Origin: Psammoneis japonica | Taxonomy: Eukaryota | Assembly: GCA_008632985.1 (NCBI GenBank) | Contig: QPGO01000263.1 | Span: 61,916-81,915 of the forward strand | Direction: 5' to 3' | DNA: 20,000 bases | Shown here: positions 1 to 19,835 of the stretch, one piece after another | How the letters are laid out: each line of letters opens with the position of its first letter | Position numbering within the stretch: position 1 is the first letter of the stretch | Notes under the pieces: generated by a model | Databases searched by the model: none | Told to the model about the DNA's origin: nothing | What the model saw: the letters and a program-made list of their open reading frames with translations, nothing else | Translations under genes and position numbers: made by a program

Positions 1-45
1 CCTCGAAAGATCCGATCGCCCAAATTCTCCATCTCGGACACGCCC

Positions 46-444
46 ATGTTTTCATGCACCGGATCTTCCATTGAATTTGACGTTGTCGGAAAGCCAATGC
101 CAAAGTCAAGACCAAAGCATGGGTGGAATGGAAATGTTTACAATCCAAACCAAGCTGATGAGAAAGAGTTTGCAAGTGTAGCATCAGATCTCTGCCGATC
201 AAGACTAGATTCAGTGCCAAAGTTCCGTGACGGTGTGTTGTTGAAGGCTCGGATTGAATTTACTTTTCCTGGGAAGAGTCTCAAGGATACAGGAGACATT
301 GACAATCTCTGTAAGTTTGTTTTGGACAGCTTAAACACAGTGTTGTATCAAGATGATTGGCAAGTGTCGCACTTGTCGGCGAAAAAGGTACTTGCTTCGT
401 CCGAATCTGCCGGACGTACAGCAGTCGAATTGAAGCGAATTTGA
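46..444 (+). CDS. rusA: RusA-family Holliday junction resolvase (endodeoxyribonuclease RusA-like)
   Basis: N-terminal VVGKPMPKSRPK motif; catalytic GDIDNLCKFVLDSLN...LYQDDWQV matches the RusA DxDNxxK...DDxQV signature. The frame is open back to position 1, so the true start may lie outside the window. Confidence 0.88.
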   Translation: MFSCTGSSIEFDVVGKPMPKSRPKHGWNGNVYNPNQADEKEFASVASDLCRSRLDSVPKFRDGVLLKARIEFTFPGKSLKDTGDIDNLCKFVLDSLNTVLYQDDWQVSHLSAKKVLASSESAGRTAVELKRI

Positions 445-528
445 AACAAATAATTCTATACGATTATAACAAGCACTGTATCACCTACTCACTTGACGTG
501 TGCCTAGAGTAGTCATGTTTTATTTTAG

Positions 529-792
529 CCCACTTGTGTCGTGAGACAAGCACTTGCTTCGTCTGAATCGGCTGGACGCACGGTCGTCTCTCTGAACCAA
601 ATTTGAAATAGATAGTGTGTTATTTCACTTGGCATGTGCTGTGCCTTACTTTGGTGCACTTCTTTGACTGGCAAGTTGTGGAGCCGTCGGCATGAAAAGC
701 ACACATTTTTCGTCTGAATAGATCGGACGCATGACAATCTGGCGGACGCAAAATCTGGAGTCGTTGCACCGCACCAAATTTGAAATAGACAG
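529..792 (+). repeat. Two degenerate copies of the rusA 3' end
   Basis: About 550-606 translates ALASSESAGRTVVSLNQI* versus rusA VLASSESAGRTAVELKRI*. About 667-792 begins DWQVVEPSA (rusA DWQVSHLSA) and ends in the same aatttgaaa stop context. Confidence 0.8.
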
Positions 793-852
793 TTCCACAA
801 GCTTCTGTTGGTGCAGTAACACACAATTACTTTACATACATTTTACTTTCAC

Positions 853-3276: not shown

Positions 3277-3626
3277 TCCGTGAAACGGCTTGTCTTGTTT
3301 TTTGTCTTGAAACGCGTCAAACGTTTGATTGCAGACTTATCGCCACTTATGGTAGAAGGGGCCTAGACGCCTTCATGATTGGCGCCTCAAGGGTCGAAGT
3401 GGGCATGCTGCACGGCTGCTCTGTTGTTGCGGGTGGCTTCTGTGACAGCTGTGTGGCTGCGTCTGCTTTTTTGTGAGACGATATCTCCTCCGTGCCGTGT
3501 CTCTAGTCTCGAACTTTAGCACGGTATCGCAGAAGTCTTGCGGGTGGTGGTGAATCTGATGATGTAAAAATTCTGGCGCGTTTCAAGGTTATGTGTGTAT
3601 ACAGACATGTGATGTTATATTTACAT

Positions 3627-3667
3627 CAACTTTCAGAGAACTTTCGGGTTACTTCTTCTGAAAGTTG
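3627..3667. repeat. Perfect 11-bp inverted repeat caactttcaga-N19-tctgaaagttg
   Basis: Read directly; arms at 3627-3637 and 3657-3667. Confidence 0.8.
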
Positions 3668-3854
3668 CCAAATCTATTCCGGAAAGATTCTTCCTTGTTT
3701 GTGTCGTGCGTGACCGTCGCCGCGATTTTTTCGGTGTAGCTTGTAGAATTAATACCATGATTTTCGTATGTAGATCATTCGTGGATCATGGTACTTTCAA
3801 AATTATTACCAATTCCTACGTACCGGTACACTGTACGTCCTACTACTTCTACTC

Positions 3855-3881
3855 TAGCTACAGTAGCTACTACTGTAGCTA
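3855..3881. repeat. 12-bp stem hairpin tagctacagtag-cta-ctactgtagcta within a CTA/TAG-rich patch
   Basis: Read directly. Confidence 0.8.
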
Positions 3882-4075
3882 CTGGTACCCGGCGGCCTCT
3901 CCTGGCGAAGATTCATAATATTCAGCATAGATATATATTTTGGTCGTCGGAATCGAATATCCAGGCTTTATCGATCTAAAATCCAAAATTCTTTCATGAT
4001 TGACTTTCATCTTTCATGTTGTGGGAGCGAGAATGTTGCGGCACTGTATGACTGTGATTGAATGAACGATGCACC

Positions 4076-4550
4076 ATGGATGCCGACTTCACATCATCCA
4101 CGATGTCGACCTCATCAGGGGCGCACGTCTGTGATGGTGGCAAGTGGCAACACTGCAGCAACGATGTCACAATTGGTTGGCTTTGTCGTTCCGGGTGGGC
4201 AAGTTCGCACCGACTTTTCAAAAGCTGATCTGTCAGGAGCAAAGTTCACCCTGACGCTCACATGCCCTGGAGATTTCCCAGCCCCCATGTCTTCTGTGTC
4301 TGATGTGGTGTGGTTTCTGTTGCCGGGAGCACTGTTGCCACCTCAGCACGGAGTTCTGTGTTGCATTGGCAGTTGGCTGCCGCACCTGGAACAGCACAGG
4401 GTGGTGACATGGGATTTGAATTGCTTCGAGCTCTCACACTGCTCAGACCATCTGTGGTGCCTTTTGCACTGGATGGGCTCAGAATGAACAGGTGCAGAGT
4501 CTTGGGTCACCTGGCAACAACGTGTCATTGCAACCTTGGGGCTTTCAGTC
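4076..4550 (+). pseudogene. Hikeshi/OPI10-family gene, frameshifted 5' fragment
   Basis: Across frameshifts: GFVVPGGQVRTDFSKAD..KFTLTL..VSDVVWFLLPG..LPPQHGVL[C]/WQL..GFELLRALTLLRPS/AF[C]TGW/VIATLGLSV. This follows the Hikeshi N-terminal domain pattern (recognised from memory of the family). No C-terminal domain follows. Confidence 0.7.
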
Positions 4551-5891
4551 ATTGGCTCAAGCAGAAATTCTCTCCATTCAATGTTCAGAAATTCCAGCAG
4601 ATGGAAGACAGACAGTCATTTTACCACCAGCAGCCAGCAGGCATGCACGGGTGGTCTCCGTTGCAATCCAATGTGTGACGATTTGTTGGCCACCATGGGC
4701 ATTGACAGTGACTGTGTTCATTGACAAGTGACAAATGGTGCAGCAGCTTGGACTTTACAGCATTCACTTGGATGCCATGTCACCGCCTAAGATGCTGCTA
4801 AGCTTCAAGTGCCATCCTCAAGCTTCCAGGTCAGAAGGCACACGCACCCTGTTTTGCCAAAAGATTGAAGCTCAATGTCAACAAAGCCGAACTTGGTTTT
4901 GGCAGACATGAGTGTGAAGCAATGTGTCAAGGGGCCTTCCAATCATCTTCATGAGGTTCTGAGGGCTTGCTGTGTTAGAAAAATCAAGGTGAGAAAACCA
5001 TGCCACAGTGAACTTGTTGGAGAAAATGACTGTCCTCATCTCTCACGTTTTGCAACATTGTCTTTTTGGTTGGCTGAAATTCATCATGTTGATGACAGCG
5101 GTGAGCATTTAAGGCTGGAAGTGTCTGGCATGACATTGCCAACACGATGACAGCTGCAAAAAAGGCAACTGCCTGCACACTCATTTGAGTGGGAATGTTG
5201 CTGGGTCTGGTGCACAGCATGTGTTGAAAAAGGCAGGAGCAGGGTTGGGTGATGGCCTCAGTGCTGTGACAGGGGCTCTGGGACAAGGTGTTGAAAATGC
5301 AACAGACAGATTGGGAGCTGGATCAGGTGGTTTGGGGGTCTGCAATGTTGTTGCTGGGGGGTGGGACACAGTGTCGGCAACAAAGTTAAAAGCAGTGAGT
5401 TGCTTGACGTGCCTCAATCTTCATGATCAGTTGATTCAACAACAGCTCATGCTCACAAACTTGTCACATCTACAGTTGGGACAGTGAACCCAGAAGGAAC
5501 AGCCAAAGCAACCCAGCATTGCCAAAGGAACAGCAAGTGCTGAAGCTGTGGATTGATCTTTGCACCATCCAAGCCACTCTCCACCTTGAAAATGCCCTTG
5601 ACAGATTGACTTTGTCCCCTCACAGACTAGCCACAAAATGAGAGAATCCAAAACTCAGCATGGATTCCTTCTTGTCATTTGCGGGACTTGCTGTTCCCTC
5701 CCCCAGTGGTTGGAATGATCAGAAACCCAGCAGCACTTCACAAAAGATCCAGCATTGTGCAAAAGATCTAAAGGTTCACTTCAACTGCAGCACACTGCAT
5801 CAATGCTCTTGCTGTCTCTCCCACTCTCCTGTGCTGGTGCCAGCACTTAATTTTCCATGTTGTGCTTGCTTCATCATCAACTGTGACAAAC

Positions 5892-7093
5892 ATGAGTGTT
5901 GATGAGGTTTCTTCTGAGCCAATGCCAAAGCACAAGAGAAACAAAAACATCTTTGAGCTTGACCTTTGGATCGACCCCGACACCAGAAAGAGTGTCTTCA
6001 CTGATGATCAATTGGACAATGCACTCTCCAAAATTGCATGTGCAGAGTGGGGGTGTCCTCCTGCACAAGAGACAAACTGTTTTGGAAATTCAAGAGGTGG
6101 GAGCTGAGGAAACTGAAGGGTGGGCAATGATGAGTGGCACCCTGTGCATTCAATTGTCAAAGCAAGTGCAGCTGCCACATGGAGATTGTTCAAAATCAAC
6201 CAAACAACAATCAAATGTTCAAGGGATTGATGCACTCTCCAAAACTGCACTTGCAGAGTGGGGGTGTCCTCCTGTGCAGGAGACAAACTGTTTTGGAAAT
6301 TCAAGAGGTGGGAGCTGAGGAAACTGAAGGGCAGGCAATGACGAGTGGTGCATTGTGTGTTTTGTTGTCAAAGCAAGTGCAGCAATTGCCATGTGGAGAT
6401 TGTTCAAAACCAACCAAACAAGAATCAAATGTTCAAAGGATTGATGCCTCATGCAGACAAAATGTGTCTTTCCACAAGAGCCAACCAGCAAAACAACAAG
6501 TCTTGCAAGTCTTTGGCTCACTGTTGCATGCTGAGTTGCATCTGAGTCAATGGCTCTGAAGGGGCCTTTGACAGAATTGGAATCTTGACAAAGATGCACA
6601 GAGGAAGGCCAAGAGGATGCTTTCAAAACAAGCCAAGCAAGTGTTGATGTTGCACCTCACCAATGGAGGGAGTGGAGCAGGCTGGGAATGCATTGTGGAT
6701 GCCCTTGAGGGATGCAAGCATGACTCCATGAATCCTGATGTGCTCAACAAGCACACAACACACCTTTGTGGGGGTGAGCATTTTTGCAACAGCAACACAG
6801 AGTGATTTTATTGTGCTTTTTCTACAGAGAATCTTCTGCTGAATGGACATTGTCAACTTGCATCAGGGCAGGATTTCTTTTTTGCTGTCAACACGTTGTG
6901 CCACCACACACATGAAAAGGCTGGTTTAATGCCAATCAAGGTTGTCAGTTTGAATCAAGAGGGCCACATTGTTGTTTGCAGTGTTGCATCAAATGAAGAT
7001 GAGGAAACCCACAAACTCATCTTTTGGAGTGTCAAAAAGGCAGCAGAAGATGTTGTTCATTGATGTGTTGCTCATGGGGACAGGTGCACTTGG
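5892..7093 (+). pseudogene. Mutator/MULE transposase N-terminal half (WRKY/FAR1-like Zn finger plus first catalytic Asp), decayed
   Basis: C-x-F-x2-QSKC..EIVQ..PH Zn-finger-like segment, then FYCAFSTENLLLNG[HC]Q..FFFAV[N]T[LCHH]T.EKAGLMPIKVVSLNQEGHIVV[CS]V.SNEDEETHKLIF. This reverts to the MULE pattern VDTSY..GL.PI.V...NQ.GH.V.YGV if only CG and TA are restored. D1 codon at 6890-6892. Confidence 0.7.
6020..6444 (+). repeat. Tandem duplication, two units of 211 and 214 bp
   Basis: 6020-6230 and 6231-6444 align end to end (about 90% identical, one 3-nt indel). Confidence 0.95.
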
Positions 7094-7210
7094 GACACAG
7101 CATGATGTACAATGTCGCACAATGTGGCATTGTGCAACACATTCAATTTTGGACCACCCAGTGGGTTGCATTCAATTTTGCACTCCAACCACAAATCTGT
7201 TGGTCAACCT

Positions 7211-8470
7211 TCATGAGTTGATTGTCAGGGCTCCTCTGCACCTTGCAGCCTTTGAATGACCCCGGCCCAATGCTTGGAATGGTCCTTTGCATTCAGTGCA
7301 GGAGGGAAACCCAATGCTGTTCCTTGGCACTTTGCTTTGGCACATGAATGGCAGCACCATGCATGATGCTGGTGTGCATCTGGCATGTGCAAGACATGAG
7401 ACCTGTGTTGATGCCTCATTCCAACAGCTCTTCTGCTGGCATCACTGGCAGCCCATTGTGTGTGAGCATCACATGAAGCTCTTTTGTTGCAGTTCAAGTC
7501 ATGTTGTCTGATGGCAGGATTGGCGTGTGGAATGACTTGATCCAATCTACAACCATTTCACCACTCATGTGTTGAACTTGGTGATGGTTGTTCAAGGGTT
7601 GCGGAGCACCAGTGTCTCACATTGATGCAGCCATCAATTTGTCATGAGATGCTTTTTGCATGCATCAATGTCATCCATGTCAACAACAAGGTCAACCAGA
7701 TCATCAATGCAGTGCTGCCCCCCAACAATGTGTGACCCTCACGGCACATCCACAAGGCCACAGACTCTTGGAATGGCCGCTGCAAAGAAAGAAAAGTGAA
7801 CCCCATTGTTTTCACAATTCATGAGAGTCATGTGCACTTGTTCATAAAAATCCCAATTGTGGATCTCTGGCTTCATGCTTCCACAGAGCAGTGAGTCCTC
7901 TTTGCTGCAGCCGGACAGCAATTTGCAAAGTTTTGGCATGAACGGAGCAACACTTCACTTTTGGCAATTCAAAGCATTCCTGTCATGACAGTTGCTGCTT
8001 TCAACTGCATTGTTGTCATTCAGAATTCCTCCCAAGAGTGGGTTGAAAACATTCCTCTTGATGTGTGTTGACATTTTGTCTCCCCAGCTTTCTGCCCATT
8101 TTTCTGCTGCAATGGGCTCCTTGTGCTTGGTTTTCCATGATTCAAGCATCATTTTCTGCATGGTCAGCACCAGCAAAACGGTGGGGCAAGCTTTGGTGAA
8201 CAACTTGAATTCAACCTGGAGATCACTTCATTTGCTGGTGTCCCTGAAGGGCTTTCTGTTGTTGTCAAACTGCCAGCCAGAAGCATGGAATGAACAAATG
8301 CTGTGAATCCCATCCACTTCCTCTGACCCCCCCACACTGGTCAAGGCATTTGTGGTGACAAGAGCCACATCCTTTTGAGTGACAAGGATGCCTCTGAGCT
8401 CCCACTTGAACTCATCAACATCAGCTCACAGAGGCCCAGCACGCATGTGAGGACTTCATGTGTGACATCG
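7211..8470 (-). pseudogene. Mutator/MULE transposase C-terminal half (D2, CxxH, E, SWIM), decayed
   Basis: In order on the minus strand: GILVTQKDVALVTTNAL (D2 at 8369-8371), ICSFH (CxxH at 8285-8296), NDNNAVESSN (E near 8000), SWIM finger CTC..QHHAWCCH (about 7345-7392, with a frameshift), and a basic KAAR..GAL tail. Confidence 0.75.
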
Positions 8471-8479
8471 CCCAGTGGC

Positions 8480-9085
8480 TGGCATGAGATGAGGACAGAT
8501 GCGGAGCAGGGGTGGAACTGAGTCATGCAGGGAGGGCAAGGAATGGGATTGGGGTTGGGGCCAGCAAGATGGGACTGCAGTTTTGTGGAGCAATGGGTGA
8601 GATGGTCAGCAAGCAATTTGGCTGTTGCAAAGCTGAGGCTTTGAAGGCCTCATTGTGATGGAGTTGAGGTGTGGTGGCGGGTCAAGCTGAAATGTGCAGT
8701 GGATGTGTTTTTCCAACAATTGGCGGTGGCAGTGGGGAGGATGGCAGACAGGGAGCAACTGTTGTGCACAGGTGCATGTGGCATGGGCAGCAGGACATTG
8801 GAAGGAGGATTTGGTGTTCCAAGCATGTGCAGGTGGGGCAGGGACAGGGTGTTGGTGATCGGCTCCAAAAAGGAGGCTGTGTGCAAAGCAGCCGTGGGCT
8901 CCAAAGTGATCGATGGTGAAAGGGATGAAGCAAATGCTGGCATTGTTGAGGGAGGATGCAATGGTGGTTTCATGTGCTGGGTTTTGTGTGTCCCGTTGAA
9001 CTTCCGTTTGGTGCTCACATGGTGTGCCTCAGCACAAGGGTTGAGAGTGAGGGCAGGCAAGCCAGGAGCAGGCAATGGAGGAGAA
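8480..9085 (-). mobile_element. Decayed 3' fragment of a second CRE-like non-LTR retrotransposon
   Basis: Translates PAPGLP..AEAHHVSTKRKFNG / LNNASICFIPFTIDHFGAHGCFAHSLLFG / SAILPTA..W..F..T..TSTPSQ*GLQSL. This is collinear with PPPGLP..TEAHHSSARLKFLG / LDNNGIFLLPFTVDHLGGLGCFAHRLLFG / SAILPSADSAW..FGSTYRTATPSQWATQTL in the 15387-18059 ORF. Confidence 0.85.
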
Positions 9086-10202
9086 GAAGTTGCTGTGCTC
9101 ACGAACAATCCCACTTTAGCTTCTGAAGGCAATGTCAAGGCAAATGGCGGGGATGCCTTCGGCACTCCTCTTGTTGCCCGTAGCCACAGCACAAACAATG
9201 ACACACCAAGCACCGGAGCATCGCCCACAGGAGTGCGAATGTCTTCTACGCCCATGCATGCTGCCGGAGTGGAATGCAGAAAGCTCACGTGGTTCTTCCA
9301 ACCGCCACCCATGAATGTAAACTAAAAAAAACATTGCAGTCTAGATTGCGTTTGAAGAAGTCTAGTCCTAATGCATGTCATGACGAAGTCCATTGCCGAT
9401 CCAATGCCACCGTCAACGACTGCCAGATTGTCATCGCGATTCCCTCCGTCCCTCGGGATGCGCAGCGCCACAATGGAGGTGTGGCAGCAGGCTCTTGGCA
9501 AACCTGTCTCGTCGTCCAACAAGATTTTAAAGACAATGCCGCACCAATGAACAAGGTAGCTAAGGAACTCAGCACACTGTCCCATTTCCAAAGACAGCAT
9601 GGCCGGAACAACGGATGAAGGCAAAGACTCCGTAAAGGATGATGTCGCTCAGGGTCACAGTCCATGATCCGTAACCAGAAGCCAGGTGATTCCTAAAAAT
9701 AAGAACGACATACGGAATTTCAACCATTCAGTCACTTGATCCAATTTTCGACATGTATGATGTAGCACTAGACTGGCGGTCTCTGGACGTACAGGTAAGC
9801 GAGCTTGCATCTCACCAAACGATAGAGGTAACCGCACGTCCCGTTCGCGAGAACAAGAATGCGGCTTAAGATACGGTCCTCGAAACAGTAGAGACCGGGG
9901 ATCCATCGACTCACAAGAGTGAGTTTTTGGAGACAGAGTTGATTGCAGAAAGTCCGCAGTACAACATTATTGTTCCCACACCGTCCTTTGAACGACTACA
10001 AGATGGCAGAAATAGACATTGATCCTAATGCGACCATCACGAATGAACAGCGTTGCTAAGAATTCTCTGATTTTTGTCGATCGATCGTGTTGGTGATGAA
10101 TAATTGACAGGAATGATGCGGCTCCAAAACATCAACGAGATGCCCATTGTCACTTCAGCAGATGCCATTACATGTTGCTAATGATCGCTAAGCATCTATT
10201 GG

Positions 10203-12389
10203 TCATAGAGGCTGTCCATCCTGATTGATTAAAAAACGATCGGGACGATAAGGCTTCAAAATGTCCCACGAAATGCCTTTTGTCACTTCAACAGATGCCA
10301 ATGCACAGAGAAGAGGAGCCAAAGTCACTCCAGAGTGAGTCACAATTCCGTAGAGCCCCCGTTTAATCCAACCAACAGACGGAAGCCCATCCTTTGGGAT
10401 GGGCCTGTTAGCCTCTTGCAGCCATGAATGTGACAGATCGTGCATGATACGAGGAGTCAACGCCGAGGCGCCTTGTAACAATGAATCTTCCACCGCGACT
10501 TCGGCGCTTCGCTTTGTAGTGGGCGACCCTCCAGTTTCAAGAACTCCACCCCCTACTGCTATGATCCCATCTCGTCTTTGTAGCACGTGTGCTTTCCTCA
10601 CAGTGTCCACTAGTATTCGATTAAGTCGTGGGCTCTGAGATTTTGAAGAGGATTTCGTCCTGCAAAATACGCTTTGACCCGGTCGATGTAAAAGAGGCAG
10701 CCCACCAAAGGCAGGGTTGGAAGAACCAGCACCAGCTGCGACAACGACTACATCGCAGGAATTTTCGCTGGTTGCGTTTGAGGTGATGGAACGTGTCACA
10801 ACACCGGACACACACCGTCTTTTATTGTCTCGTATCAAATCAACTACTTGTTCGTTTGCAATAAACGTTACTCCCAAGTCTGTCGCTGCTTTGCGCAGCT
10901 CCTTGACAGCAACAGATGGATTGACGCTGCCCTCTTGTGGATAAAAGTAAACTTGCCTTGAAGATGAAAACTCCACCTGTGGTTCAAGCTCTTTGATGCG
11001 AGCTGCTGAAAGCGGTCCCTCCACATGGTACCCACCGTTATGATTGGGTTTTGTGTCAAACGCGACCAAGGAGCCACTCCATACTGGTAGTGGAGTCAAT
11101 GTTCCGTCATATTTCCACGACCGCAGCCCTAGCTGATTAAGTAACTCGTATGATTGAGGAATCTTGCCATTCGCATTGATCCACGCCCATGATGCTGCGG
11201 TGGTGGCTCCGACATTTTCTTTTGGAGGCAGACGGTCATACACTGTCACATTAACTCCCTGTCGCGCAAGATTCAGAGCCATGCAACTGCCAATTATACC
11301 AGATCCAATGACTACGACATGCTGGCAAGGAATAACAGGTTGTTTGTCCTTTACACCCCAAACAGTGAGACCCACGTCGTTCAGTTCTAGCATGGTTCTT
11401 TCAGCCGTGGTTGCAGGACTAGTAGCTTGGGATGGGATAGTTGATACTCCGACTCTTTTTAGCAGTTCCTCATGAAAAGGCTGAGGAAATTTGTTTCCTA
11501 GGCGCAGCCATACACCATTCCGCTCCTGGACTTCACCAAGCGCAAGCTCCTTGCTCGGGATAGCATTGGGCATTGACAAAGAGTACTTTTCCATGTATTT
11601 CAGTGTTTCAGAAAAACTAGAACTCTCTCCCGTTAGCTCCTGCAAGACAGGTGATAACTCTTGCACCAATTTTTCTAGTTCCTTTCGATACACTTTGTGT
11701 ACGTGCGAAACCGAAGTTGGTGGACTAGAGCGATGACAGAATAGCCACATACAGGCCGCCCACAAGAGCTTGCGTGCTGCAGCTACTCGAACTTGACCCC
11801 AATCATTTGATATTTTTGTCGCAACTCCATGTTCTTCCAAGATTTGTTGAATTATGGACGAGTGCTTCCCATAGATAAGTGTCGGAGGCGACAAAGGTGT
11901 CGTAACAGGATCCCCGCCTACCTCTAACACTCCATAATGTGGAATCACGAACGTGCAATTTTCAAAAGAGTCAAGTGGCAAGCCGTTTCCCACAAAAGCC
12001 AAGTCGGTTTGTCTTTTTGGTATCGTGTCATGTAGCACACTCGACCACGCATGAGACGGAGTTGTCACAAGAATGGGTGTGCCGTTCGGAGACAAACAGC
12101 CCGGAGCCACTCCTCTTGGAACTGCCACTAGTATCGAATTGTTTTGGTTGATGCTACCATTTTTCAGGAAAAAAGAACCCATGCGCCCACTCGCACCGAC
12201 GATTTCTCCAGAAACTTTGCATTCAAAGTCATTATGATCGTCAAGCTTGGAAGAAGTTGACGAGAGGCCACGGTTCGACCGACGACATGAACGGGGAGAT
12301 GCAATAGCTTGTAAACTGTCGGCAATTACCAACACGAAAGTCCACAACAATACATTGGCCAGTTGCTGTCGATGTACTATTCTTTGCAT
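10203..12389 (-). CDS. Fusion protein: signal/transit peptide + At1g16080-like Rossmann (ketopantoate-reductase-like fold) domain + DAO-family FAD-dependent oxidoreductase
   Basis: 728-aa intact ORF with a hydrophobic N-terminus (LLWTFVLVIADS/LQ). Domain 1: IVGASGRMG, DLAFVGNG, YGKHS, KLLWAA, ERNGVW. Domain 2: VVIGSGIIG, GATTAASWAWIN, VVVAAG, RPIPKDGLP, HSGVTLAP. Confidence 0.85.
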   Translation of the reverse strand: MQRIVHRQQLANVLLWTFVLVIADSLQAIASPRSCRRSNRGLSSTSSKLDDHNDFECKVSGEIVGASGRMGSFFLKNGSINQNNSILVAVPRGVAPGCLSPNGTPILVTTPSHAWSSVLHDTIPKRQTDLAFVGNGLPLDSFENCTFVIPHYGVLEVGGDPVTTPLSPPTLIYGKHSSIIQQILEEHGVATKISNDWGQVRVAAARKLLWAACMWLFCHRSSPPTSVSHVHKVYRKELEKLVQELSPVLQELTGESSSFSETLKYMEKYSLSMPNAIPSKELALGEVQERNGVWLRLGNKFPQPFHEELLKRVGVSTIPSQATSPATTAERTMLELNDVGLTVWGVKDKQPVIPCQHVVVIGSGIIGSCMALNLARQGVNVTVYDRLPPKENVGATTAASWAWINANGKIPQSYELLNQLGLRSWKYDGTLTPLPVWSGSLVAFDTKPNHNGGYHVEGPLSAARIKELEPQVEFSSSRQVYFYPQEGSVNPSVAVKELRKAATDLGVTFIANEQVVDLIRDNKRRCVSGVVTRSITSNATSENSCDVVVVAAGAGSSNPAFGGLPLLHRPGQSVFCRTKSSSKSQSPRLNRILVDTVRKAHVLQRRDGIIAVGGGVLETGGSPTTKRSAEVAVEDSLLQGASALTPRIMHDLSHSWLQEANRPIPKDGLPSVGWIKRGLYGIVTHSGVTLAPLLCALASVEVTKGISWDILKPYRPDRFLINQDGQPL

Positions 12390-12806
12390 TGTCTTCAGCG
12401 ATTCCTCAAAGGACTTAATTCCTCATCATCTTGGTGGCTGATGCGCGATCTTTTTCTGTTGCTCTCTCGCTCTCGCGCTCGCCGTTTTTGATTTTGCAAA
12501 ACTGCCGCCAACCGGGAGACGGATAGGCGGTAACCTACGTATGAGGTCAGTACTTTTGCTGTATGTAGAATCAATACTACGCCTACATGCAAGATTCATT
12601 ATGATATGTACAGATTTGTATAAACCTATTTCAGCAGGACTCAGTTCGCGTCAAGTTCGCGTGTATCGACTGATTTGAGATTGACGATCGACTGACATTG
12701 GGCTTCACGTACGCTGGAACACCGAACGCATAGTTGATTGCCATATTCTTGTTTTGTTGCTTGCGACAAAGAGAGAAACCAAGAGAACTTATCGAAGAAT
12801 AGAACC

Positions 12807-14632
12807 ATGGCGTCTGCTAAACAGGGTGCATATGCCCAAGTCTCAGAGGAGGCCTCCGAAAAAACGGCGGTACCCATCAGTGCGGCTGAACCGATTGGTG
12901 AAAAAGTTGAACGTTTGGAGGTGACGCAGACGTGGGCCAGAGGAGAAGTCCAAGAAGATGGATACAAGGATGTCTACTTTGCAGTGGCATTCTATATACA
13001 ATTAGTGGCAATGATGGCGACCGCGTTTTTGTTTGCGATCGGAGCCATTGAAACTTCTTCTGACAGCGGTGACGGCGATTGGAACCGGAGGCTATCCGAT
13101 TACGTGTCCGGAAACTACAACGAGAATAGCAACAGCTACAATGACAACAACAACTCTAACGCCGGTGGAGAGGACGATGACATTTCTGACGAAGACTTTG
13201 GCAAGCTGCTAAGTGTTATTGCCCTATCTCTTGTGCTTTCGCCCGTCTTGGCTGTGCTTGCACTCGGCCTCCTCCGTGAGCATGCCCGTTTGCTAATCAA
13301 GGCTTCGTTGTGGTTCAATATCGGATTATCGCTTGTGCTTTGTTTGCTTTCTCTGGTGACTGCTCCACTTGCGGCCTTTCTCTACGGAATTCTCACGCTG
13401 ATTCTGGTGTGTTATGCAAAGGCTGTCTGGCACCGCATCCCATATGCCGCTTCCAACTTGCGATGTGCCGTGACAGCCGTCAAGGCCAACCTGGGAATTG
13501 CCCTCCTTTCCTTTGGTGCAGTCCCCTTCAATATTGGCTGGTTCTTTCTATGGGGCTACACCCTCTACAAGACGATGCAAACCGACTTTATGAAGGATCA
13601 AGTGGAAGAAGAACCGAGCTCATTCAATGCCAACGATGACTTCAACAGCGACAGTTCGACGGAAACGCTGTCTGCCGCGGGGACTTGCGTTATCATGCTC
13701 TTCTTGCTATCATTGTACTGGACGTCTGAAGTCATAAAGGTACGTCCCAATTTTGAGGTTGTTATGTCTAACATTTGATTGGGTAATCTCAATTGTGTTC
13801 TTGTATTTCGTCTCGTCACGACAGAACACCATTCATACAACAATTGCCGGTGTCATTGGCACGTGGTGGTTCCTCCCTGAAGAGGCTTCGTCGTTTTGCT
13901 CGAAACATCTAACCGACTCGCTTGCTAGGTCTACAACATATTCGTTTGGATCCATTTGCTTTGGAAGTTTGATTGTTGCTATTCTAGAGGTTCTCAAGAA
14001 CTCGCTTCGCAATGCCCGGAACAACCGCAACAGCCTGCTGCGATGCATTGTCATTTGCATACTTGCATGGATTGAAAGATTGGTGGAGTACTTTAACAAA
14101 TGGGCCTTTGTTTACGTGGGTTTGTATGGCTACAGCTACTTGGAGGCCGGGAAAAATGTGATTACGTTGTTTCGAGCACGCGGTTGGTCCGCGATTATTA
14201 ACGACAACTTGGTTTACAGAATGCTCGGAATGATGTGCCTGGCAATTGGGCTTATTACGGGTTTGATTGGCTTTTTGTTTGCGCTCACACTGGGTCTTGC
14301 TAGTGACGGGCTAGTCGCTGCTGCGGTAATGTGAGTGGCGTGTTGCTCATTGTTGTTGCATTGGTCTTTTGCGCTTGCTCACCTTAGATCCTTTTCCGTT
14401 TGTTTGTTTTGCAAGTCTGTCCATACTGACTGGACTCATCACGTCGGGGATCATGATGACCGCTGTTGGAAGCTCTGTTGACTCCATCATTGTTCTGTAT
14501 TGTGAGGCTCCGGCCGAGTTTGAAGAAAACCATCCAGATCTGCACCGGGAGATGCAAGCAACATGGAGTGAAGCCTGGTCTAGTGTTATCACAGCGGAAG
14601 CAGAGGTCGTCCCATCGGCTAACGTGGTCTAG
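12807..14632 (+). CDS. Choline transporter-like (CTL/SLC44/PNS1 family) membrane protein, 3 exons: 12807-13739, 13825-14330, 14416-14632
   Basis: Motifs YKDVYFAVAF, RIPYAASNL, YWTSEVIKN, AGVIGTWW, SFGSICFGSLIVA, YFNKWAFVYVGLYGYSY, GWSAIINDNL. Introns 13740-13824 (GTACGT..ACAG) and 14331-14415 (GTGAGT..AAG), 85 nt each, restore the frame. Confidence 0.93.
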
Positions 14633-14949
14633 AGAGCAGGCCCATAGTTTGAGAAAAGTTTGGACGTGTGGGAATACGTACAATTTTTATTGGGTTTGAT
14701 AGTACTTCTAGTTGAAAACGTTGCATAATTAATGATCCTATTTTTTGGCAGTAGCTACGAACAAAAAGCTGAAGAGCTACAGGGGGCCTACTCTGCAAGC
14801 AGTAAGTCGAGGATGGCTGAGCAGTCGTAGAAACCTAAAAATACATCTCAGTCAAGCAGCAGCCGTTATGTTGAGTGCTCCAAAGCAAATTACCATGAAC
14901 TATCGCTGTGCATGAACTACATCAACCTGCTTTCTCCTCTCTCTAGTAG

Positions 14950-17900
14950 TTGGACGGTCGGTCGAATCTGAGCTGCTTGGTTGGTCCCATACGCCGCGCC
15001 TCTCCTCATCTTCCCCCGACTTTTCTGCTTCCACCTATTGCTACTCCGCTCAAGTCTGCGCCGACGAAGATAACTTTCACTCGGCCTACTCCAAGCTCAC
15101 CTCTGCGCTTCCTGTTGCTGCCGTTACTCCTGAGCGCCTTCCTACCATCCTCAAGCTCTACCCTCCTCGCCTGCACCCCTCCGACCTACCTAATCCTCCT
15201 TCAACTCGCTCGGCCTCCTCCCTTCATAATGAGCCTATTGAGCTCTCCTCCGATGCTCTTCTTTCCGCTCTCTCCAAATGTAAGCCTGGGACTGCTGCCG
15301 GTGTCTTTGCTGATTCTACCGACCTTTTCAAGTCCTACGCCCTCTATTCTACCAAAACCCCAACAGGAGTTGCTCAACGCCCCTGCTTGTCATCCTTTCA
15401 TGAGCTTGTCCTTCTTCTGCTCCATGGCTCCATTCCTCCCTCCGTCCATTCCTTATTTGCTTCGAACTACTTTGTCGCTCTGCATAAAGATGCCAGCGAC
15501 CTCAACAAGCTTCGCCCCATTGGCGTCGGTGCTGCTCTTCGTCGCATTGCCGGCTCCGTCGTCATGACTCTCTTTGGTTCTGCATTTACCGAATGCCTCC
15601 TCCCAGATGGCCAATTTGGCATTGGTGTCAAAGGTGGCCTCGATTATCTCATTCACTCTGCTCTTGCCAACATTGAACGATGTCTTTCTTCTGCCGACTC
15701 TACCAAGGCTCTTCTTCTTCTTGACCTCGTCAACATGTTCAACGAAGCATCCCGAGATGCCTGTCGACACGTTCTCACCTCCACCCCTGCCTTCCATCCT
15801 CTGCTTCCTTTTTTTGACCTTCCACGTCAAAGTTCCAATACATGTTGGTGTCGCCGACCCGATTCTTCCTGGGGCTCCTTTCTTCAAGAAGAGGGATTTG
15901 CCCAAGGATGCCCTCTCGGCCCTGTTTTCGCCAGCCCAGTCCTCTCTCTGGTTCTTCGTCCGATTAACCAAGAGCTTCAAGAACATGTCCCTGGCCATTC
16001 CTCTGTCTCAGTTGGCTCCTACATTGATGATGCTCATGCTTTCCTTCCCCATTCCGTGCTCCCATGGTTCCTTGAACGCTTCTCCGCCCTCGGTGCCCCC
16101 TGCGGAATCTCCCTCAACCTCCGTAAAACCAAGATCCTCACCTCCATTGCCGGTGTTAGCCCCATCCCTGCTCTTCCCCCTTCCCGTGCCGATTCTCTCC
16201 GTGCTGCACTTTCCTTCTTAAACCCCACCAATGACCCCTCTCACAACCCCGAACTCACCTCTGGTGTTCGCTTCCTTGGACAGCCCCTCGGCTCCCACGA
16301 CTTCGCCACCTCCTTCCTTTCCGACACTTCCTCTACTCTCTCCGACAAAGTTGACATGCTTCTCACCCGTCTCCATGACAAACAAACCCAGGCTCAACTC
16401 TTCAAGCACTGTTTTGTTCCATCCTCTGCTCACCTCCTTGGAGCTGACTTCTGCTGCAACTTCGACCCTGACAATCCTCCCGACCCCTTTCTCTGGACCT
16501 CTCCGTTTCAAGATTTCCTCCTCACCGTTGCTCACCGCTTTCTACACTGCGTCACTTCCTTCGCCGCTCCTTTTCCCGACCATTCTATTGCCATCACTTT
16601 CCTTCCTGCCTCCTCAGGCGGGTTTGGTCTCCGGGACCCAACAGCTGCCGCCATTCCTTCCTTCTTGGTGTCGCTTCTCCGCTCGTTCCGCTTTGCTTCG
16701 CACGGTGTCAGCCTGCCATCTGGCGCTTCTGTTTCCCTTCCGCGCTGCTTTCGGCTCTCCCTGTCTTCCTGGTCCAACCCTTGCTCTTCCCTGCGACTCT
16801 ACATGCTCTTCCGCCGTCATGCTCCCGTTCTGGCTTCCGCCTCTGCCCTTTCCTCTTCTTCCCTGGCTGCCCTGGTTAAATCGGCCACCCTCCCCGGCCT
16901 GGCCCATCGTCTCTGCCATGAACATCAGCAACAAGCAGTGACCTCCATCCTTGCTAACTCATCTTACGACGTACAATCTTCGCTCCCTTCATTGCTGTCT
17001 CCGCTTACAAGCCTCCCTCTTCATTCCTTCTCTCATCGCTTTCCAAGCTCCCGCCTTTCTTCGGACGCCTGCGCTGTTGCCGCCCTTCGTAAGCTTCGTC
17101 TCCCCATCCTTCCTCCGTCCCTTGTCAACACTCCCTGTCCCTGTGGCCATGCCATTCTGGATGCCTGTGGTGATCATGCCTTTTCTTGCCGCCGTGCTCA
17201 CAAGTCCAAGCTTTCCAATGGTCTCCGTGACACTGTTTTCATCCTAGCCCAAACTTTGGGTCCTCTTGCAGAGTTCTGTCGATCCCCCAATGACGTTCAT
17301 CTTGAACCCACCAACCTGCTCCCCACCCGCCCGCTCCTCCGTCCCGCCGATGTCGGCATTTCAATCCCCCCTCCCGCCTCCCTTTCCGCTCCCTCCCGCC
17401 ACCACTACATTGCAGTGGACGTCACCGTCCCTCAAGCTTCCTCTCGCCCTCCTCCAGGTCTGCCTGCCCCCTCTTCTCCTGTCTTAACTGAGGCACACCA
17501 CTCGAGCGCGAGATTGAAGTTTCTTGGCCCCTCTACTTCCTCTGCCGATGGATCCCTTGTTGTTTCTTCGCTTGACAACAATGGCATCTTCCTGCTCCCC
17601 TTCACTGTAGATCACCTTGGTGGTCTCGGCTGCTTTGCCCACCGCTTGCTCTTTGGTTCTACATCCCCCTCCGTCTGCTCTCAGCCCAAGCCACCCTGGT
17701 CCTCTTCCTCTGACCTTCGTCACTCCGATGCCTCCTACTCCGCCTTCCTCTACGCTTTATCGTCTCCGTCTGCAATTCTTCCCTCTGCTGACTCCGCATG
17801 GCGTCGCCTGTCCGCCGATCGCTTTGGAAGCACCTACCGTACAGCCACCCCATCCCAGTGGGCCACCCAAACTCTTGGCTACAACGTTGTTCTTCACCTT

Positions 17901-18085
17901 TCTACGCACATCCTCCGATTCACCTCCTCTCTCCCTGCCCCCTCCTCACCCATACCTTCCACAAAACGCCCTTCGTCTTGCGTCCTTCGACCCTTTTACT
18001 CTACCGTCCCTACAGCTACCTCCGTGCCTCCCTCTGCTGTTACCTTCCGCTCTACATAGGCTTCCTTAATCTTCTATTTTAAATA
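14950..18085 (+). mobile_element. 5'-truncated CRE-clade (RLE-type) non-LTR retrotransposon
   Basis: Abrupt switch to a strongly C/T-rich sense strand. One reading frame is open from 14916 to 18059 with no ATG at its start. No clear TSD or poly(A) tail was seen, so ends are approximate. Confidence 0.85.
15387..18059 (+). CDS. Reverse transcriptase + CCHC knuckle + restriction-like endonuclease (partial; frame extends upstream to about 14916)
   Basis: RT motifs KLRPIGVG..LRR, QFGIG..GG, LDLVNMFN, QGCPLGP, YIDD, LNLRKT, RFLGQP, LP...GGFG. C-terminal CPCG..D..GDHAFSC, RPAD and VDVTV are typical of CRE/SLACS/MoTeR-like elements. Confidence 0.9.
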   Translation: MSSFHELVLLLLHGSIPPSVHSLFASNYFVALHKDASDLNKLRPIGVGAALRRIAGSVVMTLFGSAFTECLLPDGQFGIGVKGGLDYLIHSALANIERCLSSADSTKALLLLDLVNMFNEASRDACRHVLTSTPAFHPLLPFFDLPRQSSNTCWCRRPDSSWGSFLQEEGFAQGCPLGPVFASPVLSLVLRPINQELQEHVPGHSSVSVGSYIDDAHAFLPHSVLPWFLERFSALGAPCGISLNLRKTKILTSIAGVSPIPALPPSRADSLRAALSFLNPTNDPSHNPELTSGVRFLGQPLGSHDFATSFLSDTSSTLSDKVDMLLTRLHDKQTQAQLFKHCFVPSSAHLLGADFCCNFDPDNPPDPFLWTSPFQDFLLTVAHRFLHCVTSFAAPFPDHSIAITFLPASSGGFGLRDPTAAAIPSFLVSLLRSFRFASHGVSLPSGASVSLPRCFRLSLSSWSNPCSSLRLYMLFRRHAPVLASASALSSSSLAALVKSATLPGLAHRLCHEHQQQAVTSILANSSYDVQSSLPSLLSPLTSLPLHSFSHRFPSSRLSSDACAVAALRKLRLPILPPSLVNTPCPCGHAILDACGDHAFSCRRAHKSKLSNGLRDTVFILAQTLGPLAEFCRSPNDVHLEPTNLLPTRPLLRPADVGISIPPPASLSAPSRHHYIAVDVTVPQASSRPPPGLPAPSSPVLTEAHHSSARLKFLGPSTSSADGSLVVSSLDNNGIFLLPFTVDHLGGLGCFAHRLLFGSTSPSVCSQPKPPWSSSSDLRHSDASYSAFLYALSSPSAILPSADSAWRRLSADRFGSTYRTATPSQWATQTLGYNVVLHLSTHILRFTSSLPAPSSPIPSTKRPSSCVLRPFYSTVPTATSVPPSAVTFRST

Positions 18086-18168
18086 AGAAGCCTAACCATG
18101 GCAATCACAACGCCGAACGCACGCACACTCTTCTCTTCATTGTCCTTCGGTTCCTTGCAGCTTACATC

Positions 18169-19113
18169 ATGAGCTTGCAGGACGTTCCTATTCCTGTCCT
18201 GTTGGAGCAAATTGTTTATCCTGACAGGGAAAAGATGGTGGGAGAACGCTTCAAAGTCGCCCACCTGACCTCAACCAGAGGTCGAGAGTTGAACGGCAAG
18301 TTTTGCGTGGTGACAGGCTTTGATCGCGACACTATAGAGGCTCGCCTTCATTGTCTCATCGACGGTGTCGACAAACAGATCAGCTTGAAGCTGACCAACT
18401 TGATTCCAGAAGAAGTGAATGCCGTCCTCGGACATTTCATGGAACATTCTGCTTCCATTCCAGATGCTACACTAGCCGCCTGTTTGGAGCGTGCCATCGA
18501 AAAGCATGGCGGCCTCACGGATCGCGCTGATTTATCACATCGTATCGGTCTCTATCGAGAGCTTCTAAGCAAGCTGCGCCGAGAATCATCTGAGTCTTCA
18601 TCGAATTGCTTGTCTGACGCAGATTACTGTTTCCCGTGTGGAGCCGGTGTAGAGCTTCTCTTTGACGACGATCCTTTTGGTGTGCTTATGAATGCGATGA
18701 GACCGGCATGCCATGGAAATGAGATGATGGATATGCGCTTTGCGGACATTGGGCTGAAAGGTGATGGCCACACCGAATGCACTATTTGTCGGGAGGTTTT
18801 GGCGCCTCCAAACAACGATGATGATGGCTCCTCTTCGGGTCCGATATTGGTGACGCTTCCATGTCTGCATATTTTCCATGAATCATGTATCGTCGATTGG
18901 CTCGGTAGCCTTGTAGGTCAACAGAACTGGAATTGTCCTTGCTGTCGTGCTGCTGTGCCAGACGACATTTCGACGTACCGAATTCGATACGATGAACAGT
19001 TGCAGCGTCGCATCGATGAATATCCTCTGTCGGGTTTTTGCACGAAGTGCATAATGTGGGTTATGGAGCGCAATCGCAATGACACGCTACCAATTGCACA
19101 AGTGCCAATCTAA
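18169..19113 (+). CDS. RING-H2 finger protein (putative E3 ubiquitin ligase)
   Basis: CTIC...LPCLHIFHESCIVDWL...CPCCR is a C3H2C3 RING; intact 314-aa ORF starting with ATG. Confidence 0.88.
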   Translation: MSLQDVPIPVLLEQIVYPDREKMVGERFKVAHLTSTRGRELNGKFCVVTGFDRDTIEARLHCLIDGVDKQISLKLTNLIPEEVNAVLGHFMEHSASIPDATLAACLERAIEKHGGLTDRADLSHRIGLYRELLSKLRRESSESSSNCLSDADYCFPCGAGVELLFDDDPFGVLMNAMRPACHGNEMMDMRFADIGLKGDGHTECTICREVLAPPNNDDDGSSSGPILVTLPCLHIFHESCIVDWLGSLVGQQNWNCPCCRAAVPDDISTYRIRYDEQLQRRIDEYPLSGFCTKCIMWVMERNRNDTLPIAQVPI

Positions 19114-19729
19114 CCGCCGACTGACTCAACATGGCTCGCAGATCTGATCACGTCTCATGGATCGAGCTACAGATTATGAAACGGTGAAACAATGAAATCT
19201 TCGATAGTCAATAGCCGATGAAATTGACTGTAGAATTGCTTCTATCTTATCCTGGCTACTCAGGTTCCTACGTTACTGTTTCAAGTTTTTCGGCGCCATT
19301 GCAACTAATGCTTGCATACGGTACAGCTCGACATCTGCCCAGGAGTCAGAGGGCATAGGCATTGATACAAAATCGAACACGATAACCCTGCCTTTCAGAA
19401 CCAACCAACGCAGAGCTCTCCGGTGTCGTAGATACTGATGTAACCAAAACGCTCGTCGATTCCAGCCCAATCGTCACAGAAAACTTATACACGGGCTCCA
19501 TGCAGCCGAGCTATGCATCAAACGACAAACATCGGACAAGGAAATTGAACACATCCGATCCGACCGGTAGTGGAGAGGCCAACAATATTGCCTTGTTCAC
19601 TAGCATAGAGTCCCCAGACAAGTTATGCCGAGAAAATGACTTAATTCATCTTGAATCAACTGCGGTGGAGATATAATACCGGAGGTCTGTTTTTTTTTTT
19701 GCCAAGGCACTTCATAGAAGGCCATCTCT

Positions 19730-19835
19730 GCTCTAGCTATATAGTAGAGACTCCCTAGCTAGGGGCCCTACTCTGAAGTCTAAAGAGATCTCTTGAGAGT
19801 ACCTCTAGCTAGAGGGCCTCTACTCTAACTACAGT
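19730..19835. repeat. CTAG/CTA-rich palindrome cluster
   Basis: Perfect palindromes ccctagctaggg (19753-19764), aagagatctctt (19783-19794) and cctctagctagagg (19802-19815). Confidence 0.75.

Follow-up and report, generated by a model that had tools for sequence, protein, structure and literature searches.

To our knowledge, every described form of repeat-directed hypermutation, whether repeat-induced point mutation (RIP), its CpG- and TCG-biased relatives in basidiomycetes or APOBEC editing, works by deaminating cytosine. RIP changes C:G to T:A pairs. Work on filamentous ascomycetes describes this as mostly a conversion of CpA to TpA, with TpA enriched (PMC2621366); other reports describe editing footprints fixed in retroelement copies (PMC4866542), model selection against CpG and UpA (PMC3829696), find 5-hydroxymethyluracil (5hmU) enriched on dinoflagellate transposons, including long interspersed nuclear elements (LINEs) labelled CRE-Ambal and R2-NeSL (PMC11572971), and find no sequence motif for 5hmU in Breviolum (PMC11071213). 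Here we analyse a stretch of 20,000 nucleotides (nt) from Psammoneis japonica (assembly GCA_008632985.1, contig QPGO01000263.1, positions 61,916–81,915 of the forward strand), referred to below as the window, whose own numbering is used throughout. It contains an open reading frame (ORF) belonging to a 3.1-kb, 5'-truncated copy of an abundant R2-like non-long terminal repeat (non-LTR) retrotransposon, the interior of which is strongly depleted of the dinucleotide TA. On balance, we favour the view that a TpA-specific transition process shaped this interior. The element comprises the following features.

About 14985–18083, plus strand: copy of an R2-like non-LTR retrotransposon of the restriction-like-endonuclease type, truncated at the 5' end and defined by a family hidden Markov model (HMM), contig breakpoints and the lack of LTRs
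14916–18059, plus strand: open frame between stops, 1047 codons long, with ~23 codons of read-through flank at its start
15501–16283, plus strand: reverse transcriptase domain (Pfam RVT_1, residues 196–456, E = 2.4e-8; YIDD box at 16020)
17136–17519, plus strand: C-terminal Cys/His motif and PD..D..K-like motif, a presumed restriction-like endonuclease (invariant alignment columns)

An earlier, sequence-only reading of the window had reported about 20 TA in a core at 15660–17460. We count 19 in these 1801 nt, where base composition predicts 75.4 (observed/expected ratio, o/e, 0.25), against 22 TA in each end of the element (14986–15659, o/e 0.69; 17461–18083, o/e 0.82), and the difference between core and ends is significant (conditional binomial test, p = 2.7e-5). 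The same reading had given about 15 TA for the last 0.36 kb, matching the 15 in 17700–18059 (o/e 1.02), and about 17 for the first 0.4 kb, where 14916–15315 holds 16, although approximately 70 nt of that stretch are flank outside the element. It had also described CG as abundant throughout, as indeed it is (93 in the core, o/e 0.79; ends, o/e 0.84).

The TA deficit extends to all three codon phases of the ORF. Tyr codons are rarer in the core than in the ends (4 of 600 versus 13 of 422, p = 0.005), as is TA across codon junctions (11 of 599 versus 21 of 420, p = 0.006), whereas NTA codons do not differ significantly (4 of 600 versus 6 of 422); TG and CA codons are both raised in the core. At core junctions T and C stand in a ratio of 11:55 before codons that begin with A but of 201:217 before all others (odds ratio 0.22, p = 9e-7), while the ends, with 21:31 before A-initial codons, show no significant avoidance (odds ratio 0.82). 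Relatives of the element lack such a pattern: the core o/e of 0.25 lies below that of 43 of the 44 mapped relatives (0.46–0.81), the Poisson probability of at most 19 core TA is 0.003 even at the level of the lowest relative, and no difference between core and ends appears in 17 pooled relatives, whose junction odds ratios are 0.40, 0.40 and 0.47. Across relatives, junction odds ratios span 0.23–0.64, compared with the 0.22 of the core. The boundaries of the deficit divide the element into three zones.

14986–15289, plus strand: 5' segment without TA avoidance (13 TA; junctions with T before A 8, with C before A 6)
15290–17480, plus strand: TA-poor interior, whose 5' onset at ~15290–15380 lies beyond the earlier core of 15660–17460
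17481–18083, plus strand: 3' segment with TA near expectation (in the last 23 codons, junctions with T before A 5, with C before A 0)

Read in steps of 100 codons, avoidance is absent from the first 100 codons (14988–15287; 8 versus 6) and from the last 23 (5 versus 0). One interior step, 16788–17087, is also flat, with junctions too few to weigh (3 versus 3).

The encoded protein carries the corresponding signature. With four Tyr (0.7%), its core has the fewest of 38 aligned family members, the relatives having 7–25. We compared columns in which Tyr is more frequent than any other residue in 37 relatives, since requiring at least 50% Tyr left only 5–6 columns and too weak a test. At the 19 Tyr-plurality columns the window copy has Tyr five times, Cys seven times, Phe three times and His and Arg twice each; of the 37 relatives, 31 have no Cys at these columns, five have one and one has two.

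15384, 15594, 15681, 15849, 16452, 16914 and 17166, plus strand: former Tyr codons that now encode Cys (column comparison)
15378 and 15825, plus strand: former Tyr codons that now encode Arg (column comparison)
16050 and 16818, plus strand: former Tyr codons that now encode His (column comparison)

A change from TAY to TGY is an A>G at TpA, one from TAY to CAY a T>C at TpA, and one from TAY to CGY both. Peptides of the relatives reappear altered in the window copy, with DLLY read as DLPR, CWY as CWC, DVYY as DFCC, LYH as LCH and LDPYGDH as LDACGDH, and with a Leu replaced by Pro at 15822 (codon CCA). The sequence-only reading had singled out Cys, His and Pro at places where Tyr or Leu would fit; the relatives do carry Tyr or Leu there, and homologues sharing the residues of the window copy were not seen. 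Its proposal that TA was lost through transitions to TG and CA in the lineage of the element agrees with the 11 columns listed above.

TA is scarcer still in the metagenome relative L015 (positions 1–3577), which derives from a separate record. Its TA o/e is 0.07, compared with 0.39–0.87 in 79 other relatives, while CG stands at 1.00, TG at 2.11 and CA at 1.33. Aligned with L006, which has intact ORFs and is 75% identical across 3.5 kb, L015 has CA at 56, TG at 49, TC at 17, TA at six and other dinucleotides at 19 of the 147 TA positions of L006, whereas 110 of the 201 CG are unchanged. The TG and CA outcomes are interleaved (57 runs versus 53 expected), and the rate of A>G is 0.363 after T, 0.074 after A, 0.097 after C and 0.032 after G. 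With L012 and L013 as outgroups, 660 columns yield 76 private residue changes in L015 and 30 in L006. The excess in L015 (Y>C 12, Y>H 7, T>A 5, I>T 4, L>S 4, I>M 4, V>A 4, L>P 2) consists of the exact products of TA>TG/CA across all codon phases, and all Tyr of L006 have been replaced, chiefly by Cys or His. The divergence of the pair occurred under purifying selection (ratio of nonsynonymous to synonymous substitution rates, dN/dS, 0.19–0.21; dS 0.8–1.0). The frame of L015 is broken once only, which fits the inability of A>G and T>C to create stops: enumeration of such changes gave no case of a sense codon becoming a stop, in line with the earlier expectation that TA>TG/CA seldom does so. Sparing of the 3' end from TA loss is slight in L015. 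A 19:1 excess of CA over TG at L015 junctions was considered as a sign of selection and set aside, being confounded by a dS of ~0.8–1.0, and the outgroups reveal non-synonymous junction changes.

Two further family proteins have lost their Tyr in the same manner relative to their nearest kin: P0148 keeps none of 10 (five to Cys, three to His) and P0074 two of 18 (seven to Cys, six to His). P0148, P0074, P0154, P0071 and P0092 have Tyr contents of 0–0.8% and Cys contents of 3.4–3.8%; P0148 and P0074 were compared with kin of the P0002 cluster.

TA loss in the window is most complete in an older repeat tract upstream of the element.

3980–9116, no strand assigned: old repeat tract, nearly TA-free and CG-poor (dinucleotide o/e)
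8521–9045, minus strand: old remnant of the 3' part of a related element (tblastn at E = 1.4e-9 with 39% identity; family HMM positions 1058–1230, E = 2.3e-13)

Between 4001 and 9000 only 18 TA remain in 5000 nt (o/e 0.05), with CG at 0.18, CA at 1.96, TG at 1.76 and the twelve other dinucleotides at 0.90–1.18. TA occurs at 17 sites only in 4048–9116, and the border of its loss is sharp; CpG survives near the borders, at 4028–4430 and 8860–9300. TA loss is thus more complete than CpG loss in this tract. Tandem copies of ~215 nt within it (5990–6430) differ at 23 positions, 10 of which form five CA-versus-TG doublets, suggesting that ancestral TA or CG changed independently after the duplication. 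Pfam searches with 15 frames of the tract gave nothing above noise. At its exact sequence the tract is single-copy, its paralogues having diverged, and it is adjoined by a TA-rich low-complexity CTAC/GTAG stretch (3750–3900; 45 TA in 3501–4000).

A third repeat, which opens the window, shows changes at individual sites.

56–1166, no strand assigned: part of another repeat, with TA versus TG/CA differences from its paralogues (contig comparison)
853–3276, minus strand: ORF of the left-end repeated element (1–3336), 807 aa, without a Pfam match

For the contig comparison, the window was set against other copies in a public run (X1); 40 of 1183 variant rows were listed. At each of the 14 differences listed for 56–1166, TA in the other copies is matched by TG or CA in the window. 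They include same-strand pairs, G for A at 617/619 and 641/643 and C for T at 700/702 and 796/798, which amount to TATA>TGTG or CACA. One contig of 942 nt differs from the window at 14 positions in total, 12 of them among the rows listed. Within a 220-nt patch of the 56–1166 copy 10 of 17 TA have changed, and 39 TA remain in the 56–1166 stretch. At the lone residue-changing site, the residue is Leu or Phe in eight relatives, Ile (ATA) in the other copy and Thr (ACA) in the window, so that the window is derived and the direction is TA>CA; the other site within the ORF, codon 705, is synonymous. We also considered the reverse, in which the other copies would have undergone CpA>TpA as in RIP, and rejected it because the differences run one way, the majority of copies have TA and the outgroup comparison gives TA>CA, with 14 sites listed and one polarised.

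The 853–3276 protein has Atlas features resembling NDC10_II/GCR1_C (0.97). Its invariant residues R173, E176, K202, R288, W312 and Y322 form an R..E..K..R..W..Y pattern that resembles that of a tyrosine recombinase, possibly Crypton-like. Pfam and a profile search of solved structures with this protein returned nothing, leaving the Crypton-like identity unconfirmed, and its AlphaFold model has a mean pLDDT (predicted local distance difference test) of 46. Were this repeat a DNA transposon of the Crypton kind, the process would act on DNA.

Together, L015 (TA 0.07, CG 1.00), the old tract, in which TA is gone up to the borders where CpG survives, and the left-end repeat copy demonstrate a TA-specific process separate from CpG decay, a distinction that the sequence-only reading had drawn. 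We infer that DNA is the substrate of this process and that it also caused the TA deficit of the element. Through A>G on either strand, TA would be converted to TG or CA; the process would target repeated DNA, independently of CpG methylation decay, and would have hit the interior of the element's lineage partly, removing at least about half of its TA. Tyr codons would become Cys, His or Arg codons, and stops could not arise. Hits on the window copy after insertion and hits on its master earlier would both fit. Three repeat families of the window show TA loss, as does L015; unique intergenic DNA of the window has a TA o/e of ~1. Tentatively, and with more doubt than confidence, we extend this to a repeat-directed TpA>TpG/CpA DNA mutator in this eukaryote and in the hosts of the metagenome relatives, a defence that would run opposite to the direction of RIP and ahead of CpG decay and through which the element would have partly passed. 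Its chemistry could be adenine deamination or thymine oxidation.

The element is flanked by host genes, which provide a standard for ordinary coding sequence in the window.

10203–12389, minus strand: FAD oxidoreductase gene
12738–14334: choline-transporter-like gene
18169–19113: RING-finger gene

Several observations weigh against a TpA-specific process having shaped the interior. First, T before A-initial codons is avoided in host genes as strongly as in the core (odds ratios 0.19, 0.28 and 0.28 for 10203–12389, 12738–13736 and 18169–19113; core 0.22), and part of the core deficit could come from host-like selection on RNA. The host genes keep Tyr (1.8–4.2%) and NTA codons (2.9–6.2%), each of which makes up 0.7% of the core, so host-like selection could explain part of the deficit, but it accounts neither for the Tyr>Cys excess nor for the TA-normal ends. 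Second, the conserved residues are intact: the window copy deviates at three of 68 columns conserved to at least 90% and at 10 of 153 conserved to at least 75%, which is at the low end of the family range, and three of these 10 deviations are R>H with codon CAT, a CpG-type change. Such intactness fits a lineage under selection and not a freshly hypermutated corpse. Third, the Tyr replacements are lopsided, with seven to Cys and two to His, the His count being at background level. Fourth, in the sole element row among those listed, 15702, the window has TA and four other contigs have TG. Fifth, the proposed process does not account for the sparing of the first 300 nt and the last 100–600 nt, and at the left border of the old tract TA loss does not fade. 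Finally, 27 other pairs of close relatives (with at least five differences) have ordinary substitution spectra, and the process must therefore be sporadic. Over the whole window, and not resolved by region, A/T in the window faces G/C in other copies at 483 places and the reverse holds at 379, an excess that fits a family-wide A:T>G:C drift.

A narrower account, close to that of the sequence-only reading, holds that the window copy itself was hit after insertion and is caught half-way, by a homology- or chromatin-guided process that fades towards the ends of the copy. We regard it as doubtful. The layout suits it, the TA-poor zone being internal with TA-normal DNA at both ends and relatives being without such contrast, and the 56–1166 repeat shows that single copies do take private TA>TG/CA hits (10 of 17 TA in the 220-nt patch). 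Guidance by homology with a fade to the ends is nevertheless not borne out, because the 3' end is the deepest part of the element (summed contig depth 5784, versus 1411 at the 5' end) yet the least depleted, the border of the old tract is sharp on its left side too, and what looks like a 5' "edge" in this truncated copy corresponds to the inside of a full-length element. That the copy is caught in mid-mutation also finds no backing at 15702, where TG stands in the other copies and not in the window; about 40 private changes might, moreover, be expected to give more unanimous rows among those listed, and the conserved residues are intact. Nor is there support for death by missense, which had been thought possible, the deviations of the copy (3/68 and 10/153) being ordinary to low for the family; it is dead because truncation has removed the N-terminal third. 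The spared ends favour an event that was local and centred on the copy, whereas the intact conserved residues and the heavily repeated, least-depleted 3' end argue against a simple homology-dose model.

It is unlikely, in our estimate, that no mutator touched the element at all and that its family, long resident in this host, acquired host-style UpA avoidance in transcribed coding sequence, its Tyr-poor and Cys-rich protein being a product of drift. Such an origin would be in keeping with the intact conserved columns and with a core junction odds ratio (0.22) equal to that of host genes (0.19–0.28) and near the range of relatives (0.23–0.64). Selection on RNA would, however, go by synonymous routes. 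With its seven Tyr>Cys changes the window copy stands apart from the rest of the 38 sequences, and the core has far fewer Tyr and NTA codons (0.7% each) than the host genes keep (1.8–4.2% and 2.9–6.2%). The ends of the same ORF, which are coding and yet without avoidance, would also stay unexplained.

Editing at the RNA or cDNA stage by a UpA-preferring deaminase, fixed by reverse transcription, appears improbable. It would account for the 7:2 ratio of Tyr>Cys, which is a sense-strand A>G, to Tyr>His, and the internal patch could match a double-stranded stretch of the transcript. ADAR enzymes have a weak neighbour preference and are not known outside animals. The hallmark of ADAR-type hyperediting, A>G on the transcript strand only with weak neighbour preference, is not found in L015: TG and CA (49 and 56) are equal and interleaved (57 runs versus 53), and A>G is several times more frequent after T (0.363) than after A (0.074), unlike the preference of ADAR. 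The ORF of the left-end repeat looks Crypton-like (from the Atlas lead of 0.97 and the pattern of invariant residues), and such elements are without an RNA stage; in the old tract, the 10 of 23 differences between tandem copies that fall in CA-versus-TG doublets point to in-place change after DNA duplication.

Lastly, it is very improbable that the deficit merely follows from the scarcity of A, arose by chance or reflects an error of assembly or sequencing. With A at 14% of the strand few TA are expected, but o/e takes base composition into account, the ends hold three times the TA at the same composition, contigs of the public run match the window (0–1 differences per contig in the old tract, none in a flank of 5268 nt) and the record that contains L015 is a separate one.

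The identity of the element rests on several lines of evidence. Window positions 14985–18053 align to positions 210–1255 of the family HMM, and the copy therefore is without the N-terminal part. The Cys2His2 fingers found at the N terminus of full-length relatives (1000–1370 aa) are absent from it, which fits 5' truncation and not membership of another family. When the family profile was compared with solved structures, the best matches were the R2 proteins 9nl3 (E = 5.6e-9) and 9dou (E = 8.7e-9). In the C-terminal region, the aligned relatives share a Cys/His motif followed by an invariant E, P-x-D, D-x-T and K, with invariant columns C741, G752-D753-H754, C758, K763, E797, P810, D812, D835, T837 and K868; Pfam models found no match in residues 663–1047, and the combination of Cys/His and PD..D..K-like motifs is presumed to represent the R2-group restriction-like endonuclease. 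Contigs of other copies (run X1) diverge from the window before 14985 and beyond 18083, with 12 contigs parting at 18083 itself, and their flanks agree poorly (0.47). Neither LTRs nor inverted or other terminal repeats of the element were found, and its 3' untranslated end measures 24 nt. The summed contig depth, counted at 80% likeness or more and not equivalent to copy number, increases towards the 3' end (1411, 2554, 3862, 5060 and 5784, against 61 for the adjoining single-copy contig), a gradient that matches the expectation for 5'-truncated copies of an abundant non-LTR element.

Relatives are numerous and distant. A search of 5.8 billion proteins returned 24 at E ≤0.001, in which full-length relatives reach 27–41% identity at lengths of 630–1369 aa and cover up to 96% of the query. 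Among 1.84 billion cluster representatives there were 2327 matches at E ≤0.001, of which 175 reached ≤1e-30; identity did not exceed 52%. No close paralogue was found in the protein libraries, the best identity being 40–52%, and shorter proteins gave two matches at 42–45%; cluster names of the relatives read only "hypothetical protein".

The sense strand of the element consists of 14% A, 39% C, 16.5% G and 30% T and is thus 69% pyrimidine, rising to 80% at third codon positions. All 80 relatives from metagenome contigs (L001–L080) likewise have a G-poor sense strand (G 9–21%), and 14 of them, including the closest, are 63–70% pyrimidine. The pyrimidine-rich strand is a trait of the subfamily and not a mutational mark of the window copy; transitions leave the balance of purines and pyrimidines unchanged, so it does not stem from the transition process. 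Other subfamilies are A+C-rich, with proteins rich in Thr, His, Pro and Gln.

The frame bearing the element sits between the choline-transporter-like gene and the RING-finger gene. In the former, two 85-nt GT..AG stretches (13738–13822 and 14331–14415) are skipped in a contig of another run (X3) and are probably introns. An X3 contig, from a run whose contigs look spliced, spans 18055–19768; it begins 28 nt within the 3' end of the element and crosses the RING-finger gene, and the element may be located in or beside the 5' untranslated region of that gene. Contigs of run X3 do not cover 15342–18009.

If a repeat-directed TpA mutator exists, removal of TpA by A:T>G:C would be a new chemistry for genome defence and would explain transposon relics that lack both TA and CG. 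Annotators would also be warned: since no stops arise, long open frames may be recoded corpses, intact-looking and, at the extreme, free of Tyr. Untouched relatives, the partly hit element, L015 (TA-free with CpG intact) and the tract lacking both would then form a series from which order and targeting could be read. The young element alone is only moderately informative, and its value is that of an intermediate member of this series.

Our literature search found no description of TpA>TpG/CpA hypermutation of repeats; a Rhizoctonia paper using related terms applies them, in the passages concerned, to RIP indices only. Among described transposons the element is closest to the R2 group, which it resembles in a reverse transcriptase nearest to solved R2 proteins, in the N-terminal zinc fingers of its relatives, in a presumed C-terminal endonuclease region with Cys/His and PD..D..K-like motifs and in 5' truncation, and from which it differs in low identity, confined to the reverse transcriptase region, in a G-poor and C-rich sense strand and in a 3' untranslated region of 24 nt. 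As for the loss of TA, decay by methylation and deamination of CpG likewise ends in an excess of TG and CA and is present in the old tract (CG 0.18), but neither the young element (CG 0.79–0.84) nor L015 (1.00) is affected by it. UpA avoidance, known from coding RNA and RNA viruses, is shared by the host genes with their depleted junctions, but selection of this kind keeps Tyr codons and never reaches an o/e of 0.05 in dead DNA. For 5hmU on dinoflagellate transposons, the passages bearing on it report no mutational footprint; mispairing of a modified T with G, giving TA>CA, is by analogy a conceivable chemical route. APOBEC3 (G>A) and ADAR (A>G) also leave enzyme-made, context-biased transitions in retained retroelement copies. 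They act on one strand of a replication intermediate, whereas the hits in L015 fall evenly on the two strands, the preference for TpA is close to absolute, and a copy of what is probably a DNA transposon has also been affected. RIP offers the fullest likeness, with transition hypermutation in repeats, a dinucleotide preference, same-strand clusters and frames riddled with missense changes. Its hallmark, TpA enrichment, is absent here, and the direction TA>TG/CA is set by outgroups in L015 and at one site of the window. Whereas RIP turns C:G into T:A, the change here is reversed, A:T>G:C at TpA, leaving TA at 0.05–0.25 and, in the old tract, CA and TG at 1.8–2.0.

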